A stretch of DNA of 64,000 nt from Elusimicrobiaceae bacterium. Lineage in GTDB: Bacteria > Elusimicrobiota > Elusimicrobia > Elusimicrobiales > Elusimicrobiaceae. The notes beneath the pieces are model-generated. The model saw only the letters and a program-made list of their open reading frames with translations, was not told the origin of the DNA and searched no databases. Positions 1 through 58,350 of the stretch are shown here, piece after piece. The position numbers were made by a program, and so were the translations under genes. The stretch spans positions 114,721 through 178,720 of the forward strand of contig JAZNNM010000002.1 of the NCBI GenBank assembly GCA_045580265.1. Reading direction: 5' to 3'. Numbering within the stretch: the first letter of the stretch is position 1; each line of letters opens with the position of its first letter.

Positions 1-1398
1 CCGGAAGATCCGGTTTTGCGGGATTATTATCGTTATATTTTACGAGATGGACTCGGGTACTGGATTAACCAAAAATCGGAACGTTTTGACGAAGAACGCT
101 TACTCTTTTTTACTGCAGTTACTGCTCCTTCGGAAAGATTGTATGCCTTGTACAGCCGCGGCACGGAGGATGGTAAAAATGAGGTTCCGTCAGTGTTTTT
201 GGCGGAGTTGGCGCGGGTCTGTCGGAATGAATGGCAAGCCCAAAATGCGCCGCGTGTAAGTGGTCGATTTTCGGAACAGATAGCCAATTTATCAGCAGAC
301 TTTTTAACAGAGACGGAATTCTCTTGTGCCGTGGCACTTCATCCTCAAACGGCGGAAAGCAAATATCTGGAGGCCGGTTTACTGACGGGAGGAAAATCAT
401 GTTCTCTAAAATCCGCCGTTACGTTAAACCAAGTAAGCGGTGTTACCGCGTATGACGGACAAATCCAAAGCGGACAAGAACTTTTCGAACGAATTAATAA
501 CGGCGCAGGTTTTTCGTGTTCTGCCCTTCAAACATTGGCTTCTTGCCCGCTGAAATACTTTTTTGAAAAAGGCTTGCACCTGCGGGAAGAAGACCCTCTG
601 AGTCGCCAAGAGTTGGCTCCTAATTATCGCGGAACGGCTTACCATGAAATTTTGCAAACTTTCTATACCGAGTTGTTGCGTTTGGGACTTACGCATAACC
701 TGTTTGATACCGGTATTGCTACATATTTGGAACGGGCTGTTGCTTCCCGTTATACGGAATTTTCGTATAAAAAGTTCGGGATATACCCCGTGATATGGCG
801 GGTGATATTGGATTCGATTCGGGAACAGTTGCTTTGCTTTGTAACGGAAGATTTAACTTCTCAAGGAGATTATATACCTTCTTATTTCGAAAAGCAGTTT
901 TCCCTCGAATCGCCCTCAGAACTTCCTTTTAAAATAAATGGGATCATTGATCGCGTTGATATTGATGAAAAAAGTAAAACTTTTTTGGTAATGGATTATA
1001 AATCCTCCAAAAAAGGAACTAAGAACTTGGATAAAGATTTTTTCAGTAAATTTATTTTTCAACCGTTCTTATATGTGTGGGCGGCCCGACATTTGGAGGA
1101 ATTTTCTTCTCTAAATCCGGCAGGCTCTTGCTTGCTCTCCATCAAAGACGGCTATTACCGCCAAGAACTTCCCTTCTCTCGTTGGGAAGATATGCGCCCC
1201 CATGCAGAAAAATTACTGCTTGAATTGGTGGGGCTGATTAAAAAAGGGACTTTCTTTTTAAACGATCAGGTGGAAGAAGTGTGTAAGTATTGTCCTTTTA
1301 CTTCCATCTGTCGAAGAGATGCTTTCCGCCCGCTTATGCGTGCTCGAAAAAGCGACAGCCATAAAAAGATAGAGGAGATTTGCCAACCATGGAAATGA
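1..1398 (+). CDS. addB: AddB/RexB-like PD-(D/E)XK nuclease subunit, 5'-truncated by the window edge
   Basis: Frame is open from base 1. RecB-family nuclease motif GIIDRVD...MDYKS; Fe-S staple cysteines (CPLKYF ... CKYCPFTSIC); overlaps the start of the downstream UvrD-type helicase. Confidence 0.8.
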   Translation, partial: PEDPVLRDYYRYILRDGLGYWINQKSERFDEERLLFFTAVTAPSERLYALYSRGTEDGKNEVPSVFLAELARVCRNEWQAQNAPRVSGRFSEQIANLSADFLTETEFSCAVALHPQTAESKYLEAGLLTGGKSCSLKSAVTLNQVSGVTAYDGQIQSGQELFERINNGAGFSCSALQTLASCPLKYFFEKGLHLREEDPLSRQELAPNYRGTAYHEILQTFYTELLRLGLTHNLFDTGIATYLERAVASRYTEFSYKKFGIYPVIWRVILDSIREQLLCFVTEDLTSQGDYIPSYFEKQFSLESPSELPFKINGIIDRVDIDEKSKTFLVMDYKSSKKGTKNLDKDFFSKFIFQPFLYVWAARHLEEFSSLNPAGSCLLSIKDGYYRQELPFSRWEDMRPHAEKLLLELVGLIKKGTFFLNDQVEEVCKYCPFTSICRRDAFRPLMRARKSDSHKKIEEICQPWK

Positions 1399-4300
1399 AA
1401 GAAAATCGTTTGGAAGTCCAAACCGAATTAAATGTAAACATGGTAGTAGAGGCCGGTGCCGGTACGGGAAAAACGACTCTTCTTATCGATCGTTTATGTT
1501 TGGCTGTTTTGGTTCGCGGTATAGCAGTGGAAAAATTGGTAGCGCTTACTTTTACCGAAAAAGCCGCTGCCGAAATTAAAACTCGTTTTATTTTTAAACT
1601 GCAAAAATTAATACAAACCATCAAACTTCAACGCGTAGCCAAACAAAAGTTGGATAACAAAGAACCGTTAACTCAAGAAGAAGAAAAAGCGGTAAAAGAA
1701 TCGGACAAAACACTCGATTTGTTGCGGGAGTATTTTATGGATAATGCTCCCGAAGTAATTCAGGAACCCTTCGAAAAACGACAAGAAAAATTAGAAGATT
1801 TATGGACGCTTCGTGCAGAAACGGCACTGGCGCGTTTGGATCGCAGTGCTATTGGTACCATTCACGGTTTTTGTGCTGATATTTTGAAGGCATTTCCGTT
1901 GGAAGCGGGTTTAACCCCTAACGCGGAAATTGATTCCGGCCAAAAGAGTGATCGCTTATTTGAATGTCATTGGAATGCTTTTTTGGATGTGGAATTGGGG
2001 GAACAGGCTCCGCGGGAAGAAATGTGGAGAAAACTCTTGCCGGAATTATCCCTTCCCGATTTAAAAAACTTTGCACGAGAATTATGTAGCGGAAAGATAG
2101 ATCTCTACAACTATTGGAGCCATGCGGAAATGTTGGCCGATATATGTAAGAGAAAAGCCTCTTTGGCCAGAGAAATGAGCACCGCTTTCTTGGGACCTAA
2201 AAAGCAGCTTCGCCGTTCGGAGAAAGCGCTTCTTTGGGCGGAAAAATCACTCTTAAGAACAGTCTCTTTTTTACGTAAAGCCCCTTTCCCTCCCGCACCG
2301 GAAGAAGAACTGCCTGCTTTCCCTGATGATCCTGTTACGGGTTGGGAAGAAGATGCCCATGAAGAGGCTAAAGCATTGGTTTCTTTTGCCGAAAAAGTTA
2401 CCCCTGAAAAACAACAGTTATTTTTATCTGCTTGGGAGTTGGTTAAAGACGTGGCAGACCGTGTTCGCGGAGAATTCTCGCGTGAAGGAATCTTAAGTTT
2501 TGATGACCTAATTGTTAAAACGCGCAATTTGCTGCAAAAAGACTTATACGTTCGTCGGTTGTTGAAAGAAAAATACGATGTTTTATTCGTAGATGAATTT
2601 CAAGACACGGACCCTGTTCAAGGGGAGCTGTTGCTTTTTTTAGCGGAAGAAAAAACTTCCTTTGCTTCTCACTGGAAAGAGGTAAAGCTTTCTGCCGGAA
2701 AATTGATTGTAGTGGGGGACCCGAAACAGTCAATTTATCGTTTTCGCGGTGCGGATATTACGGCTTATGAACTCTTTACCGATCTTATTTTAAAACAGGG
2801 TGGAAAAAAATGTTTTCTGCAGCGAAATTTTAGAAGCGTACCCGACATCGTATCTACGGCCAATGCGGTTTGTTCGGGAGCGATGGTGTATGAATCTTCC
2901 TTTCAACCCGCCTACGTACCCATTTTCCCTACCAAGCCTGTTGTAAAGCCGGCGGTAGAATGGCTGTTTATTAATTTGAGTGATGAAGCACGGAAATATG
3001 CCAAAGAAAAAGCGGATTTATATCGCCATAATCAAGGGGAACAAATTGCTCGCTGGATTGAAGAACACGTGGGCAGCATGAAGCTTTCCGACGGGAGAAA
3101 ACTTTCTTATCAGGATATTACGATTTTATCTCGCGCTTCCACTACTTCCGGTCCATATGTAGATGCCTTGCGTCGACACGGAATTCCGTTTAACGTGGAA
3201 GCAGATAAAGATTTTTATCGCAAACAGGAAATTCATGATTTTTTAAATCTTTTGCGCGTGGTAAACGCTCCGGATGACCATGTAGCTTTGACAGGGGTAT
3301 TAAGGAGCCCTTTCGGCGGTTTTACTGATGAAGAAATTTATCAAATTGCCAAACGAGGAGAGTTAAATCTCTCCGCTTCGAGCCAAGATCTTCGTTTGGT
3401 TGAGTTTTATTCACTGCTTCGACGTTTAGTCAATCAATTAGGAAGGGTTCCGTTAAAAGAATTTTTGTCGGGAATTTTGGCGGATACCTTTTTGCCTCAA
3501 TCGTGTGCTGTGGCCTATGATGGGGAACAAACGCTTGCCAACCTCAACCGTTTAGTTTTGTTGGCAGAAAGTTTCTGTGGAGAAAGTGCCGCCGGTTTGG
3601 GGCAGTTTTTGGCCAAGGTGGAAGATTTAATGAAAAATCACCCTGAAATGCTGGGAGCTCCCACTTCGGACGATGCTTTAGATGCCGTGTCCGTGATGAC
3701 CGTACATAAATCTAAGGGATTGCAATTTCCGGTTGTTATTTTGGCAGATTTATCCAAAAAAGATACAGGACGTCCTTCTAAAGATGGACATGTGTTTTCT
3801 TGGCAGCATAATATGCATGGCCTTCGCGTAGGAAAGATAAGAGATATCAACTTGTCTTTTTTGGAAGAAGAACAGAAAAAACATGGTCGTTGTGAAGAAA
3901 TTCGCGTTTTATATGTGGGATTAACACGTGCCGAAGAATGTTTGGTTTTAGTGGCGGATAATCGAAAAAATGCTTCTCAATTGTCCCAAGCATTTGTAAA
4001 TTGTGGCCTTTTTCCGGATGGGGAGAATTTGAAAGAGGTTTTGTCTCATTCGGAAGTATCTGTTCCGGTGAATTATTTGCCTTATCGGGATCCGGAAGAA
4101 TTTATTTTTCGTTCCACCCAAGAAAAACAGAAAGTATTATTGGGGCCGTCTGCATCGGAATGGAAGAAAGCTTTTTCTGCCAGACAAGCCCAATACGAAC
4201 AGATGCTTGGAGAAAAAACTATGGCCCCCAGTGAACTGTCGGGGAATGTCCTTTTAAGTGAAGAACAGCGAATAGGGGCAGAAGTAGGCACCGTGTGTCA

Positions 4301-4736
4301 CCGCGCACTTGAGTTGTTGATCGGCCGAAAGGAAAGCGATCCTCAAAAAGCTGTTTCTCAGGCAGCTCTTTCTTGCGCCATGCCTTTGCGTGAAGAAGCC
4401 GCGGCAGAGGTGGTGTTACCCTTTACCCAAAGCGAACTTTTTAAACAAATTTTATCGTGTGAAGTGTTGGCGTATGAAATGCCGTTTTCTTTTGTGCAAG
4501 AAAACGGTGGAATTACCTCGGGGGTAATTGATTTATTATTAAAACGTGCTGACGGATCTGTGTGGGCCATAGACTACAAAACCGATCGCGTTCACCCCGG
4601 AGGAGAAGGAAAGATTTTAGAAAAATACCGCCCGCAACTTGCCGTCTATTCCCAAGCGGCGCAAAAGCTGTTTCCCAAACAAAAAGTGATTTGTTCGGTA
4701 GTTCTCTTGCGCACATTTGCGGCGTTGGACTTATAA
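1389..4736 (+). CDS. addA: AddA/RexA-like UvrD-family helicase-nuclease
   Basis: Walker A AGAGTGKT, DEFQDTD, VGDPKQSIYRFRGA, TVHKSKGLQF, YVGLTRA, and C-terminal nuclease GVIDLL...IDYKTD. Start placed at ATG 1389, after GAGGAG. Confidence 0.88.
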   Translation: MEMKENRLEVQTELNVNMVVEAGAGTGKTTLLIDRLCLAVLVRGIAVEKLVALTFTEKAAAEIKTRFIFKLQKLIQTIKLQRVAKQKLDNKEPLTQEEEKAVKESDKTLDLLREYFMDNAPEVIQEPFEKRQEKLEDLWTLRAETALARLDRSAIGTIHGFCADILKAFPLEAGLTPNAEIDSGQKSDRLFECHWNAFLDVELGEQAPREEMWRKLLPELSLPDLKNFARELCSGKIDLYNYWSHAEMLADICKRKASLAREMSTAFLGPKKQLRRSEKALLWAEKSLLRTVSFLRKAPFPPAPEEELPAFPDDPVTGWEEDAHEEAKALVSFAEKVTPEKQQLFLSAWELVKDVADRVRGEFSREGILSFDDLIVKTRNLLQKDLYVRRLLKEKYDVLFVDEFQDTDPVQGELLLFLAEEKTSFASHWKEVKLSAGKLIVVGDPKQSIYRFRGADITAYELFTDLILKQGGKKCFLQRNFRSVPDIVSTANAVCSGAMVYESSFQPAYVPIFPTKPVVKPAVEWLFINLSDEARKYAKEKADLYRHNQGEQIARWIEEHVGSMKLSDGRKLSYQDITILSRASTTSGPYVDALRRHGIPFNVEADKDFYRKQEIHDFLNLLRVVNAPDDHVALTGVLRSPFGGFTDEEIYQIAKRGELNLSASSQDLRLVEFYSLLRRLVNQLGRVPLKEFLSGILADTFLPQSCAVAYDGEQTLANLNRLVLLAESFCGESAAGLGQFLAKVEDLMKNHPEMLGAPTSDDALDAVSVMTVHKSKGLQFPVVILADLSKKDTGRPSKDGHVFSWQHNMHGLRVGKIRDINLSFLEEEQKKHGRCEEIRVLYVGLTRAEECLVLVADNRKNASQLSQAFVNCGLFPDGENLKEVLSHSEVSVPVNYLPYRDPEEFIFRSTQEKQKVLLGPSASEWKKAFSARQAQYEQMLGEKTMAPSELSGNVLLSEEQRIGAEVGTVCHRALELLIGRKESDPQKAVSQAALSCAMPLREEAAAEVVLPFTQSELFKQILSCEVLAYEMPFSFVQENGGITSGVIDLLLKRADGSVWAIDYKTDRVHPGGEGKILEKYRPQLAVYSQAAQKLFPKQKVICSVVLLRTFAALDL

Positions 4737-4774
4737 AAGATAGAATATTAAAAACAATTTTTAGGAGAAATACT

Positions 4775-5068
4775 ATGTTTGATAAACTCGGTCAATTAAA
4801 AGATTTATGGAAACTTAAAAGCCAAATGGAAGAAATCAAAAAACGATTGGACAACATGGTTATTAAAGTGGAAAGCCCTCGCCATGTGTTTGAACTGACC
4901 ATTTCCGGCTCTCAGGAAGTAAAAGAAGTAAAAGTAGATGCTCTTGCCAAGAACTTTTCCGAAGCGGAATTGGCGGACGATTTGAAAGCCGTTATCAACA
5001 AAGCCGTGCGCGACAGCCAAGGCATGGCCGCGCAAGCTATGGGCAACTTCGGTATGCCTCAAGCCTAA
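4775..5068 (+). CDS. YbaB/EbfC family nucleoid-associated protein
   Basis: 97 aa, MFDKLGQLKDLWKLKSQMEEIKKRL...ISGSQEVKEVKVD...LKAVINKA, typical YbaB pattern. AGGAG RBS precedes ATG 4775; the ORF-track start at 4562 is too far upstream. Confidence 0.8.
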   Translation: MFDKLGQLKDLWKLKSQMEEIKKRLDNMVIKVESPRHVFELTISGSQEVKEVKVDALAKNFSEAELADDLKAVINKAVRDSQGMAAQAMGNFGMPQA

Positions 5069-5069
5069 T

Positions 5070-5435
5070 ATGTACAAAAATAAAAATATAGCCGTATTCG
5101 GTGTGTCGCAAGATCCGTCCAAATACGGGTATAAAATTTTTTCTGCTCTCTTGGAAAAGGGTTTTTCCGTCTATGCCATTAACCCCAAAGGGGGGGAAGT
5201 TCTGGGCGAAAAAATATATTCCACGCTTAAAGATGTTCCCGTTTCGGTGGAAGTGGCCGTGTTGGTTATTCCCATAAAGGCACTGTTAGGGGCCGTGGAA
5301 CAATGCGAGAACAACGGCGTGAAGGAGATTTGGTTCCAACCGGGAGCGCAAGACCCTACCGCCTATAACGCGGCTAAAGAAGCCGGTATACGGCCCGTAA
5401 ACGGTTGTTTTATGGTGGATAACGGGTTTTGGTAA
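5070..5435 (+). CDS. CoA-binding protein (YccU-like)
   Basis: IAVFGVSQDPSKYG...INPKG...IWFQPGA...GC pattern; 121 aa. Confidence 0.85.
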   Translation: MYKNKNIAVFGVSQDPSKYGYKIFSALLEKGFSVYAINPKGGEVLGEKIYSTLKDVPVSVEVAVLVIPIKALLGAVEQCENNGVKEIWFQPGAQDPTAYNAAKEAGIRPVNGCFMVDNGFW

Positions 5436-52738: not shown

Positions 52739-52819
52739 AATGACTCCTAATAAAATATTGGAAAAATATTGTAGCAAATTTATAAAAAATCTTTTTTCGT
52801 TCCCAAATAAAAATTTATT

Positions 52820-52828
52820 TGCTATAAT
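52820..52828 (+). promoter_or_regulatory. Extended -10 promoter upstream of tRNA-Ser
   Basis: TGcTATAAT, 33 nt upstream of the tRNA 5' end. Confidence 0.6.
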
Positions 52829-52861: not shown

Positions 52862-52948
52862 GGAGAGGTGGCCGAGTGGTTGAAGGCGCAGTCCTGGAAA
52901 GACTGTATACGGGAAACCGTATCGAGAGTTCGAATCTCTCCCTCTCCG
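52862..52948 (+). tRNA. tRNA-Ser(GGA)
   Basis: GGAGAGG/CCTCTCC acceptor stem, CAGTC-CT-GGA-AA-GACTG anticodon arm, long variable arm, GAGAG-TTCGAAT-CTCTC T-arm, G discriminator; CCA not encoded. Confidence 0.97.
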
Positions 52949-52975
52949 TATTAATTTAGAAACCCCGCGAAAGCG
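52936..52975 (+). repeat. 40-bp direct repeat, copy 1 (tRNA-Ser 3' end plus terminator)
   Basis: CTCTCCCTCTCCGTATTAATTTAGAAACCCCGCGAAAGCG, identical to 53154-53193. Confidence 0.97.
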
Positions 52976-52984
52976 GGGTTTTTA
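52959..52984 (+). terminator. Intrinsic terminator after tRNA-Ser
   Basis: AAACCCCGC-gaaa-GCGGGGTTTTT. Confidence 0.88.
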
Positions 52985-53153
52985 ATTCATAAAGAAAGAG
53001 TGGAGCGGCATAAACTGCTTTATGCCGCGTAGAGATTCGAAGCCCGGAGCGATGTTTTTGTTTGAGCCTACCGAAGGTTAAAATAGGCGAAAGGCAAAAA
53101 CCGCGAGGGCGGTTCCGGGCGAAATTTTCGTCAGGAAATTTACGCAGGACGGA
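52985..53153. mobile_element. Putative miniature non-coding element inserted at the tRNA-Ser 3' end
   Basis: Bounded by the 40-bp direct repeats; contains a perfect 10-bp hairpin, an inverted copy of the tRNA T-arm and nested stems; no coding capacity. Mobility is inferred. Confidence 0.55.
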
Positions 53154-53193
53154 CTCTCCCTCTCCGTATTAATTTAGAAACCCCGCGAAAGCG
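53154..53193 (+). repeat. 40-bp direct repeat, copy 2 (duplicated tRNA 3' end plus degraded terminator)
   Basis: Identical 40-mer, followed by TGGTTTTTT instead of GGGTTTTT, which puts a mismatch in the terminator stem. Confidence 0.97.
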
Positions 53194-53227
53194 TGGTTTT
53201 TTAATCAAATTTTATTTTCTTAAATAT

Positions 53228-57462: not shown

Positions 57463-58350
57463 CTATCCGCGCGGATGAAACTTTTTGTGCTTGTTTTTTA
57501 AATCGCTTATATCCAGATGGGTATAGATTTGCGTAGTGGTTAGATTGGCATGCCCCAGCATTTCCTGTAAACTGCGTAAATCGGCACCGCCCGTGAGCAG
57601 GTGCGAGGCAAATGTATGACGGAAAAGATGTGGGTGGAGCGGTTGAGATATATTGGCTTTTCGGCCTAAAGCAGCCAAATCTTTCCACACGGTTACGCGG
57701 CTTACTTTTTTGCCGCGGTTATTTAAAAATACTTCGGAACCGACGTCTTTGTTAGCAAAATGTCCTTCCCGTACGGCAAGATAGGCTTTTAAGCGTTCGC
57801 ATGCTTGCGGATGAATAGGTACAAAACGTTGTTTGCCTCCTTTTCCAAAGGCGAGTACCCACCCTTCCTGTGTGTTAATGTTTTCTAAACGTAGATTAAT
57901 AAGCTCACTAACGCGAAGCCCCGCTGCGTATAAGAGTTCTACGATGGTTAAAGTTCGGATTTCATCAAATTTTTCCGCCGGATAAGATAAAAGCCGTTCC
58001 ATTTCCTCTCGTGTAAGTTGGGTGGGAATCTTTTGCGACAGGTGCGGGGATTTAACAAAACGGGTCGGGTCTTCTTTTATTTTTTCTTCAATCATTAAAA
58101 AGCGGTAAAAACATTTGATTGCTTCCATTTTACGAAATACACTGGCAGTGGCTAAATTTTCCACCACACGCAACTGATAGTTGTATTGTTCCAAAAAATC
58201 AGGAGAGGCATCTTCGGGTTTTAAATCGTTGGCGGCACAATACTCTAAGTAACTTTCCACATCGGAACCGTAGGAAAGGATCGTATTTTTGGCCAGTTGC
58301 CGCTCAAAAGATAAATGGTTGATGAAGTCTTCCAATAACAGTGTATCCAT
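57463..58350 (-). CDS. xerD: Site-specific tyrosine recombinase, XerD type
   Basis: LYAAGLRVSEL, GKGGKQRFVP, HPHLFRHTFASHLL, ADLRSLQEMLGH and TTQIYTH motifs. Confidence 0.88.
   Translation of the reverse strand: MDTLLLEDFINHLSFERQLAKNTILSYGSDVESYLEYCAANDLKPEDASPDFLEQYNYQLRVVENLATASVFRKMEAIKCFYRFLMIEEKIKEDPTRFVKSPHLSQKIPTQLTREEMERLLSYPAEKFDEIRTLTIVELLYAAGLRVSELINLRLENINTQEGWVLAFGKGGKQRFVPIHPQACERLKAYLAVREGHFANKDVGSEVFLNNRGKKVSRVTVWKDLAALGRKANISQPLHPHLFRHTFASHLLTGGADLRSLQEMLGHANLTTTQIYTHLDISDLKNKHKKFHPRG

Follow-up and report, generated by a model that had tools for sequence, protein, structure and literature searches.

Copies of a conserved, folded, protein-less DNA or RNA cassette lie behind tRNA genes in Elusimicrobiota and in CPR bacteria, and together they form a widespread and apparently undescribed family. 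The copies combine a core whose helices are maintained by compensatory changes with variable arms that are complementary to the 3' end of the gene they follow. The reading that we prefer, and in which we place about as much trust as doubt, is that of a gene-less integrative cassette, in which the arms would choose the site by base pairing and the conserved core would recruit a function acting in trans.

Results

The window analyzed here is a stretch of 64,000 nucleotides from a 1.43-Mb, 99%-complete Elusimicrobiaceae genome. Within it, an ORF-less element of approximately 165 nt (52990-53153) lies between an intact tRNA-Ser(GGA) gene and a 54-nt repeat. This repeat is the second of two direct copies (52936-52989 and 53154-53207) that share 94% identity. 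Copy A contains the 3' end of the tRNA gene and copy B a displaced duplicate of it (Table 1). The tRNA-Ser(GGA) terminator is strong and is located directly 5' of the element. The genes around the locus are of housekeeping character (valS, a phosphorylase gene, an unknown ORF, holA, lptE and leuS). Both BLAST and a covariance model of the family (R1) find exactly three copies in this genome, behind tRNA-Ser(GGA), tRNA-Ser(GCT) and tRNA-Thr(CGT).

Table 1 Features of the tRNA-Ser(GGA) locus and of the element behind it, in window coordinates.
Feature	Position	Strand	Remarks
tRNA-Ser promoter	52800..52828	+	TTCCCA-17-TGnTATAAT; sole promoter-like site 5' of the element
tRNA-Ser(GGA), intact	52862..52948	+	Rfam tRNA, 58.9 bits
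tRNA T-loop	52929-52935		
tRNA T-stem 3' strand	52936-52940		
tRNA acceptor 3' strand	52941-52947		
tRNA discriminator	52948		
Direct repeat copy A	52936..52989	+	3' 13 nt of the tRNA, trailer and intrinsic terminator
Copy A terminator	52963-68 with 52973-78		T-run 52979-83
5' arm part 1 (a5', AGAGTGGA)	52997..53004	+	Complements the acceptor 3' strand (tRNA and copy B); tRNA-dependent
P1 hairpin	53005..53028	+	10-bp perfect stem; conserved loop (A)ACTGC(TT); all 5 modelled pairs covary
5' arm part 2 ('anti')	53031..53041	+	Exact reverse complement of 52929-52939 (T-loop and T-stem 3' strand)
Long irregular arm P3-P4-P5	53042..53110	+	Covariation
P3	53042-45 with 53107-10		GCCC with GGGC
P4	53049-51 with 53102-04; 53054-60 with 53095-101		GCG with CGC; GTTTTTG with CAAAAAC
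P5, variable hairpin	53066-70 with 53084-88		GCCTA with TAGGC
Second arm P6-P7	53113..53150	+	All 12 modelled pairs covary
P6	53114-16 with 53147-49; 53119-21 with 53143-45		TCC with GGA; GCG with CGC; internal loop between
P7 hairpin	53122-29 with 53134-41		Conserved loop GTCA; bulged A at 53142
Direct repeat copy B	53154..53207	+	Displaced T-stem 3' strand, acceptor 3' strand and discriminator at 53154-53166
Copy B remainder	53183-53196 and T-run (second terminator)		Trailer and second terminator

An earlier note on this DNA had described a perfect hairpin, GCGGCATAAA-CTGC-TTTATGCCGC, followed by a segment, AGAGATTCGAA, that is the exact reverse complement of TTCGAATCTCT in the tRNA. Both are present as described, and TTCGAATCTCT covers the T-loop of tRNA-Ser(GGA) together with four bases from the 3' strand of its T-stem. 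Of the three nested stems proposed for the same region, GTTTTTG/CAAAAAC and GCCTA/TAGGC stand and are part of P4 and P5, respectively. The third, GCCCGGA/TCCGGGC (53042-48 with 53114-20), is complementary in the window copy, but the family data favour other partners: GCCC pairs with 53107-10 and not with 53117-20, and TCC pairs with the GGA at 53147-49, as a compensated variant of the GCCC:GGGC seen across the family. A 'degenerate T-loop' that runs into the second repeat is also real, and most other copies hold an intact 3' part of a T-loop at this point (CGAAT or CAAAT).

The + strand of the region folds at -65.6 kcal/mol, compared with -50.7 ± 4.4 kcal/mol in dinucleotide shuffles (z = -3.4; 0 of 200 shuffles were as stable), and the - strand at z = -2.8. 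In a search with the Rfam 15 covariance models at E ≤ 10 the tRNA alone passes and 52990-53153 comes nowhere near a gathering threshold, so that no Rfam family matches the element; ARAGORN found no tmRNA in the region.

Covariation among the homologues is very strong. RNAalifold predicts 34 pairs on a MAFFT alignment of 111 copies, with compensatory changes in 22 of them. A second alignment, of 122 distinct copies, was fitted to the covariance model and thereby favours structure, the MAFFT/RNAalifold result (22/34) being independent of it; here 96.8% of the cells are paired, compared with 76.3% in shuffles, and double-sided changes are seen in 31 of the 34 pairs. The covariation score of this alignment is 0.497 versus 0.138, a level reached in 0 of 500 shuffles, and it falls to ≤0.08 when the partners are slid by 1-3 columns. 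Changes among the 122 copies are double-sided in 755 cells and single-sided in approximately 27. Direct indexing of P3, with the 5' side taken right after the GAA of the antisense segment and the 3' side right after CCGCGA, gives full pairing in 116 of 125 copies compared with 45 in shuffles, through variants as different as GCCC:GGGC, GGC:GCC, GAC:GTC, ACC:GGT and AGC:GCT. P1 has at least 7 contiguous bp in 100 of the 125 copies and the loop AACTGCTT in 99. The helices are thus preserved by compensatory changes, as is generally expected of structured non-coding RNA.

The fold runs from the P1 hairpin through the antisense segment to the long irregular arm (P3-P4-P5) and the second arm (P6-P7). 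Its conserved two-armed part measures approximately 110 nt, the unpaired core motifs are strongly conserved and the junction motifs are invariant. In some copies P1 looks like a dif site (GCGCATAA-ACTGCT-TTATGCGC), a likeness that we reject because the arms covary freely and conservation is confined to the loop. Chimeric P1 arms, or joints at the P1 loop, are found in a few copies.

Covariance model R1 matches 113 of 301 Elusimicrobiota genomes, including 60 of the 61 within the genus, and carriers often hold at least 10 copies each, some of them in tandem. An exact-pattern scan of species representatives yielded at least 117 loci, and among the matches listed are MAGs of Saccharibacteria, Parcubacteria and other CPR bacteria, in agreement with the mention in the earlier note of similar motifs beside tRNAs of other uncultured lineages. 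A few matches are in MAGs labelled as other phyla and may be binning noise. Homologues number in the hundreds when counted by genome, and none of the outcomes that the earlier note had named as refuting its interpretation (no homologues or covariation, folding no better than in shuffles, an Rfam match) came about. Copies are found behind at least 15 tRNA types and also behind topA, and 86 non-redundant copies lie directly 3' of a tRNA (15 amino-acid types). The cores are near-identical across phyla. The orientation is invariably that of the upstream tRNA, a terminator often follows 3' of the element, and arrays behind one tRNA consist of identical (tandem) or different units. No match to the element was found in IMG/VR, among the INPHARED phages or in the PLSDB plasmids, and the literature searched contained no description of it.

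The arms follow the neighbouring tRNA. Across the 86 copies, the antisense segment matches the T-loop and T-stem 3' strand of its own tRNA over a mean of 8.6 nt and over at least 9 nt in 56% of cases, compared with a mean of 4.6 nt and 4.9% when tRNAs of other amino acids are taken. The segment ends exactly 6 nt 5' of a conserved AGCGATG, and asymmetric T-loops reveal its antisense direction (TTCAAAT appears as ATTTGAA and TTCGATC as GATCGAA). The second arm, located 5' of P1, complements the acceptor 3' strand, and at acceptor G:U pairs it tracks the complement of that strand. An origin of the arms from the sense strand of a tRNA was considered and rejected, given that the T-loop segments are antisense and the acceptor arm tracks the 3'-strand complement and not the 5' strand. 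The proposal that the ends of the element pair with or mimic the tRNA T-arm finds direct support in this variation with the neighbouring tRNA and in the arm pairing described below, and such pairing may provide a targeting mechanism, as the earlier note suggested.

When the stretch that begins with the T-loop and ends with the antisense segment is folded in silico (72 loci), it forms a three-way junction, in which the two arms pair with a mean of 16.7 of the last 21 nt of the tRNA in the closing helix, and the terminator hairpin and P1 constitute the branches. In 68 of the 86 copies, the fit of the antisense segment is better with the genuine tRNA than with copy B. Against the element's own copy B the arms reach 6.6 contiguous bp, versus 5.7 in permuted controls; a closing helix between arms and copy B was therefore rejected as the main role of the arms, being weakly above the controls and inferior to the fit with the genuine tRNA. 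The partners of the arm in the CPR copies are the final 3 nt of the tRNA and the trailer; P1 tops the resulting hairpin, and there is no acceptor mimic. Where B copies have decayed, the parts that pair with the arms tend to persist (for example, L139).

The element has been gained or lost between species. The tRNA-Ser(GGA) gene is without it in several sister species (L016-L019, L021), is followed by a different repeat family in L022, L024 and L025, and carries a variant subfamily in L008. In filled loci (L094, L007, L009), the flank after copy B (CCAGTTT...) equals the flank directly 3' of the tRNA in element-free species, and the trailer and terminator after copy A are new compared with those species. 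At topA in two CPR genomes, the cassette is located at the gene end with an arm that complements the coding sequence just 5' of the repeat, and the in-frame upstream copy A and the displaced downstream copy B specify identical residues, the differences between them being synonymous. Identity between the two genomes is 76-79% in the gene body, 90% in copy A, 90-100% in the element, 65% in copy B and 50-57% in the downstream flank. Judged by these identities, the upstream copy at topA travels with the element, and copy B is the displaced old 3' end of the host gene. Taken together, the flanks of filled and empty loci and the topA identities therefore indicate entry at the T-loop/T-stem boundary, with a replacement 3' end brought in. 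The length of the duplication ranges from 16 to 87 nt across copies. For the window locus itself no orthologous empty site was found in relatives, because the holA flank is not syntenic with tRNA-Ser there. Joints that resemble a circle junction (core end CAAATCC to P1 loop AACTGC) occur in two genomes only, too few to serve as evidence.

These observations can be arranged in the layout X - terminator - X' - core - X, where X denotes the 3' end of the target, from the T-loop to the discriminator and beyond, and X' is X in inverted form, interrupted by the conserved hairpin P1. This layout is what a small circle or strand would leave on integrating with X' folded onto X, which is why we read the element as a gene-less integrative cassette. 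The cassette, of approximately 220 bp, would insert into tRNA genes where T-loop and T-stem meet and, more rarely, at the 3' end of other conserved genes. The first X, together with trailer and terminator, would arrive with the cassette and keep the tRNA whole, and the second X would be the old end of the host gene, now displaced. In its working form the cassette is probably a folded single strand, with DNA favoured over RNA, in which X' may pair with X to form a double-stranded replica of its own target site or may pair with both strands of the target. Pairing based on X' would pick the integration site. The enzyme, recruited in trans by the core, would be a recombination or competence function of the housekeeping kind, or else something unrecognised. 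Counting against the cassette reading, arms that match at least 15 different tRNAs need a re-templating step, and neither an excised or circular form nor a fresh insertion or a polymorphism between strains was observed.

The best-surviving alternative, although in our view a somewhat improbable one, is that read-through from the tRNA promoter yields a functional small RNA, the core of which does a real job in regulation, as a decoy or as a scaffold. The arms and the 3' copy of the tRNA end would then fold into an acceptor/T-arm-like minihelix, the element would be processed or bound by proteins that handle tRNAs (RNase P, 3' trimming enzymes or others), and the DNA duplications would merely be how the gene spread. 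Covariation this strong, conserved unpaired core motifs, an orientation fixed relative to the upstream tRNA and the frequent terminator 3' of the element are all expected of such an RNA, with the conservation of the unpaired core and the fixed orientation fitting it as well as they fit the cassette reading. The a5'-acceptor and antisense-T-stem pairings could moreover stack like a tRNA minihelix, and the persistence of arm-pairing parts in decayed B copies (L139) points the same way. However, the element stands behind a strong terminator, and no promoter of its own was found, the only promoter-like site 5' of the element being that of the tRNA. Its stems are also unusual for an RNA family: P1 and P7 contain approximately 1000 Watson-Crick pairs each, with 3 and 9 G:U and 5 and 7 A:C pairs, respectively, so that G:U makes up ≤1% of P1/P7 pairs and is no commoner than A:C. 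Further arguments against a small RNA are the better fit of the arms to the genuine tRNA than to the element's own 3' copy (68/86), the CPR variant without acceptor mimic, the presence of the same cassette at the end of a protein gene (topA), with an arm complementary to coding sequence, and the fact that neither ARAGORN nor Rfam sees a tRNA-like or tmRNA-like RNA. The near-pure Watson-Crick stems, the excess of double-sided over single-sided changes (755 versus approximately 27) and the lack of an own promoter therefore lead us to favour a DNA-level working form, short of proof, and the pairing pattern is suggestive of single-stranded DNA hairpins or of stems renewed by a templated process.

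No enzyme is consistently linked to the element. Clustering of the 1221 ORFs within 3.5 kb of approximately 115 copies revealed no recurrent recombinase, transposase or nuclease, and none of the enzymes that the earlier note had proposed to look for (a linked HUH/REP-associated transposase, GIY-YIG nuclease or integrase) recurs next to copies. Only pilin-like genes recur near copies (31 loci), and these are abundant in the genomes generally. Two leads were dropped: a GIY-YIG gene 3' of one copy (L007) is not recurrent, and the only RT near a copy (L143), 2.8 kb from the tandem copies in G010, is part of a separate prophage that inserted between the tRNA and the elements. The search for enzymes encoded in trans covered PF01797, PF00078 and PF01548. 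Y1_Tnp/RAYT (PF01797) and RVT_1 (PF00078) are absent from the 99%-complete genome and most of the genus, and IS110 DEDD (PF01548) is absent from the genome and has no match anywhere in the genus. With no RAYT/Y1 transposase in the genome, the label 'REP-like' given to the P1 hairpin is not supported. Of the three tyrosine recombinases that the genome encodes, two are Xer-like and the third, on another contig, is of phage type; several copy-rich relatives hold two Xer-like tyrosine recombinases only.

These absences weigh on a second alternative, which we judge distinctly improbable, namely that the element is a non-autonomous MITE- or REPIN-like derivative of a transposon or island, moved by a protein that is encoded elsewhere or in a co-resident element (Y1/RAYT, IS91-type (Y2) or other HUH enzymes such as Rep or relaxases, an IS110 recombinase with bridge RNA, a tyrosine integrase or TnpB). 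Its multi-copy, ORF-less and hairpin-rich character, with up to at least 10 copies per genome, is typical of such derivatives, the P1 loop (AACTGC) between variable complementary arms resembles HUH nick sites, the chimeric P1 arms or loop joints of a few copies would fit, and the insertion point is located directly after the universal T-loop GTTC. Yet three of the candidate families (Y1_Tnp, IS110 DEDD and RVT_1) are missing as described, just two Xer-like recombinases are found in several copy-rich genomes, and no transposase or integrase recurs beside the copies. In addition, the ends are not fixed terminal repeats but vary with each target, and duplications of such variable length do not amount to a fixed short target-site duplication.

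A passive, functionless scar, be it the attL/attR remains of a deleted tRNA island or a template-switch by-product at the terminator palindrome, is barely credible: the tRNA 3' end is duplicated as in ordinary att sites, genuine prophages use the same tRNA ends (L143) and quasi-palindrome template switching could yield inverted target copies, but a single core of 140-150 nt is shared by more than 100 independent loci, which span several phyla and at least 15 tRNA types, scars do not covary as 31 of the 34 pairs do here, the junction motifs are invariant and the element is 90-100% conserved where its flanks are 50-79% identical. The earlier note, too, had called this much order unlikely in a random deletion scar.

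Discussion

If the gene-less integrative cassette reading is true, site choice by base pairing exists in a cassette without any protein gene. CRISPR-associated transposons, IS110 bridge RNAs and group II introns all depend on a dedicated enzyme, and the cassette would stand apart from them in this respect; it could also indicate a minimal programmable integration module. A bolder version, which we consider rather unlikely and which would amount to a new class of nucleic-acid-guided integration in Elusimicrobiota and CPR bacteria, is a self-targeting mobile nucleic acid without a protein gene, the re-settable arm of which would read the T-loop/acceptor of any tRNA gene or the end of another conserved gene, and which would insert its own copy and rebuild the 3' end using only housekeeping functions (competence/RecA, Xer, replication) or catalysis by the core. 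On the cautious reading, gut Elusimicrobiaceae and many ultra-small CPR bacteria share a highly conserved, covarying 140-150-nt fold, with up to at least 10 copies per genome, that is missing from Rfam and from the literature searched. The element also accounts for duplicated 3' ends of tRNAs and for relic ends of genes such as topA, a recurrent annotation puzzle in these lineages, and it marks the regions 3' of tRNA genes as hot spots of rearrangement there.

Among known systems, the logic of the proposed cassette resembles that of CTXphi, with its folded single-stranded attP, and that of integron attC sites. In the CTXphi type of IMEX, the site is present in inverted and in direct orientation with a spacer between the two, and folding lets a single strand display a duplex replica of the chromosomal target, as the element does in silico (mean of 16.7 of 21 nt, 72 loci). 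The integrated forms also correspond: one end holds a hybrid site, and the other an inverted copy followed by a loop and a hybrid site (X ... X' - core - X), and in both cases the element is without a recombinase of its own. Unlike CTXphi, the targets here are the T-loop-to-acceptor region of many tRNA genes and topA, not dif; the matching arms vary from copy to copy; and the unit is approximately 220 bp with zero genes and no phage or plasmid form found. Xer recombinases act at dif and not at T-loops. The analogy with CTXphi is therefore limited to logic, and Xer involvement is unlikely given the known site specificity of these enzymes.

With integron attC sites and gene cassettes the element shares the precedence of structure over sequence, arms that are variable yet complementary, tandem arrays and plausible recombination as a folded single strand. 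It differs in having no IntI, no attI and no R-box (GTTRRRY) logic, and in consisting of ORF-less units that are each tied to a specific tRNA 3' end.

Islands and prophages with tyrosine integrases (T-loop sublocation, tRNA/tmRNA) use the same target region, likewise duplicate the tRNA 3' end, bring a replacement 3' end that keeps the gene intact and make use of the 3' ends of conserved genes. In contrast to these, the element is devoid of an integrase and of any other gene, its insert is a conserved folded sequence of 165 nt that carries an inverted copy of the target, and one family serves at least 15 tRNAs whereas an integrase normally serves one site.

Like the bridge (seek) RNAs of IS110/IS1111 and the EBS-IBS pairings of group II introns, the element contains a segment that complements the target across the insertion point and varies with it. 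However, it comes with no DEDD recombinase or reverse transcriptase, has no guide-bearing internal loops or domain-5-like motif, leaves long target duplications and has stems without G:U pairs.

REP/REPIN, Correia, RUP and MITE-like repeats are equally short, ORF-less, hairpin-rich, multi-copy and intergenic, but the present family has no RAYT gene, has target-specific ends and a strict association with gene 3' ends, and shows a far larger and more strongly covarying fold, with near-identical cores across phyla. The family fits none of the known kinds tested, departing in defining traits from each of them (integrase islands, REPIN/RAYT, IS110, retroelements, IMEX and MITEs), an assessment that a missed protein partner would change.

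Genomic context of the tRNA-Ser(GGA) junction

The 3' flank of the neighbouring gene holA retains no synteny across the genus (window 53228 onward compared with loci L148-L158), and the position that tRNA-Ser occupies near holA is taken in those loci by pilin, outer-membrane-protein or other genes. This loss of synteny, together with the replacement of the tRNA gene, makes the downstream junction of tRNA-Ser(GGA) a rearrangement breakpoint.

At three other loci (L022, L024 and L025), a repeat family of ~150-190 nt that is unrelated to the element, with the pattern CCAGTTTTCTTACTAAAAAGCCCTACTTC...GTTGCTC...CGAATACCTC..., directly abuts the 3' end of tRNA-Ser(GGA), and in L022 it is followed by a further copy of the tRNA 3' end. 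The same family is also present 3' of copy B, the tRNA-end repeat that follows the element, in L009 and L094. Hence, the gene-less inserts found at tRNA 3' ends in this genus belong to two or more families.

Interrupted copies and core variants

Chimeric or interrupted P1 hairpins occur in ~8% of element copies (L120, L134, L095 and L071/L116/L117), and the P1 loop may be a site of breakage and joining. At two joints in L114, and also in L068, the end of the core, with its T-loop remnant (…GGGCAAATCC), is fused straight to the P1 loop (AACTGC…), without repeat, terminator or P1 5' arm. The copy behind tRNA-Thr(CGT) in the source genome (L003) has on its 3' side the tRNA end repeated a second time, then the terminator and the first ~35 nt of another unit, which stops immediately 3' of the P1 loop (…AAACTGCTTT|CACTCC).

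A variant subfamily (L008, L039, L120, L134 and the upstream units of L068) has GTACGAG…/…GAGTAC in place of the P4 helix GTTTTTG/CAAAAAC and a different 3' arm (GGGGTCGCGAGCGGCGAGGG…CTTGTGACC), and retains the junction motifs AGCGATG and CCGCGAG. In L078, L082, L092 and L127, from several genomes, an identical hairpin of ~20 nt (GGTGCGATGGCGCACTCCCGCG) sits between core helices P3 and P6.

Neighbouring genes

Genes for type IV pilin-like proteins (prepilin N-terminal) are the most frequent neighbours of the element (31 of ~115 loci), which may merely mirror the abundance of pilins in Elusimicrobiaceae. A stand-alone GIY-YIG nuclease gene starts ~50 nt 3' of one copy, in L007, and recurs at none of the other element copies. 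At ~4.4 kb downstream of the element, the window encodes a Xer-like tyrosine recombinase.

Features associated with element copies or encoded in the source genome (G000; G010, another genome; C, contig; L, individual locus)
Feature	Position	Strand	Remark
Element copy behind tRNA-Thr(CGT) (L003)	G000:C3:10063-10298		
GIY-YIG nuclease gene	L007:559-822		87 aa; PF01541, E = 1.8e-20
Pilin-like neighbour, example	L010:371-877		
Pilin-like neighbour, example	L113:4317-4868		
Xer-like tyrosine recombinase gene	window ~57511-58017 (G000:C2:172231-172737)	-	
Second Xer-like gene	G000:C2:52844-53347		
Third gene, phage-type integrase	G000:C14:1522-1917		
Prophage-like region	L143:~1-5270		L143 is G010:C9:55500-63500

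The prophage-like region of L143 encodes a tail-fibre-like ORF, an RVT_1 reverse transcriptase, a lysozyme and a small NrdD-like ORF, and terminates in an 11-nt fragment of the tRNA-Ser 3' end (CTCCCTCTCCG), directly followed by two tandem copies of the element. Because the reverse transcriptase adjoins the tail-fibre-like ORF, the pair is possibly a DGR.
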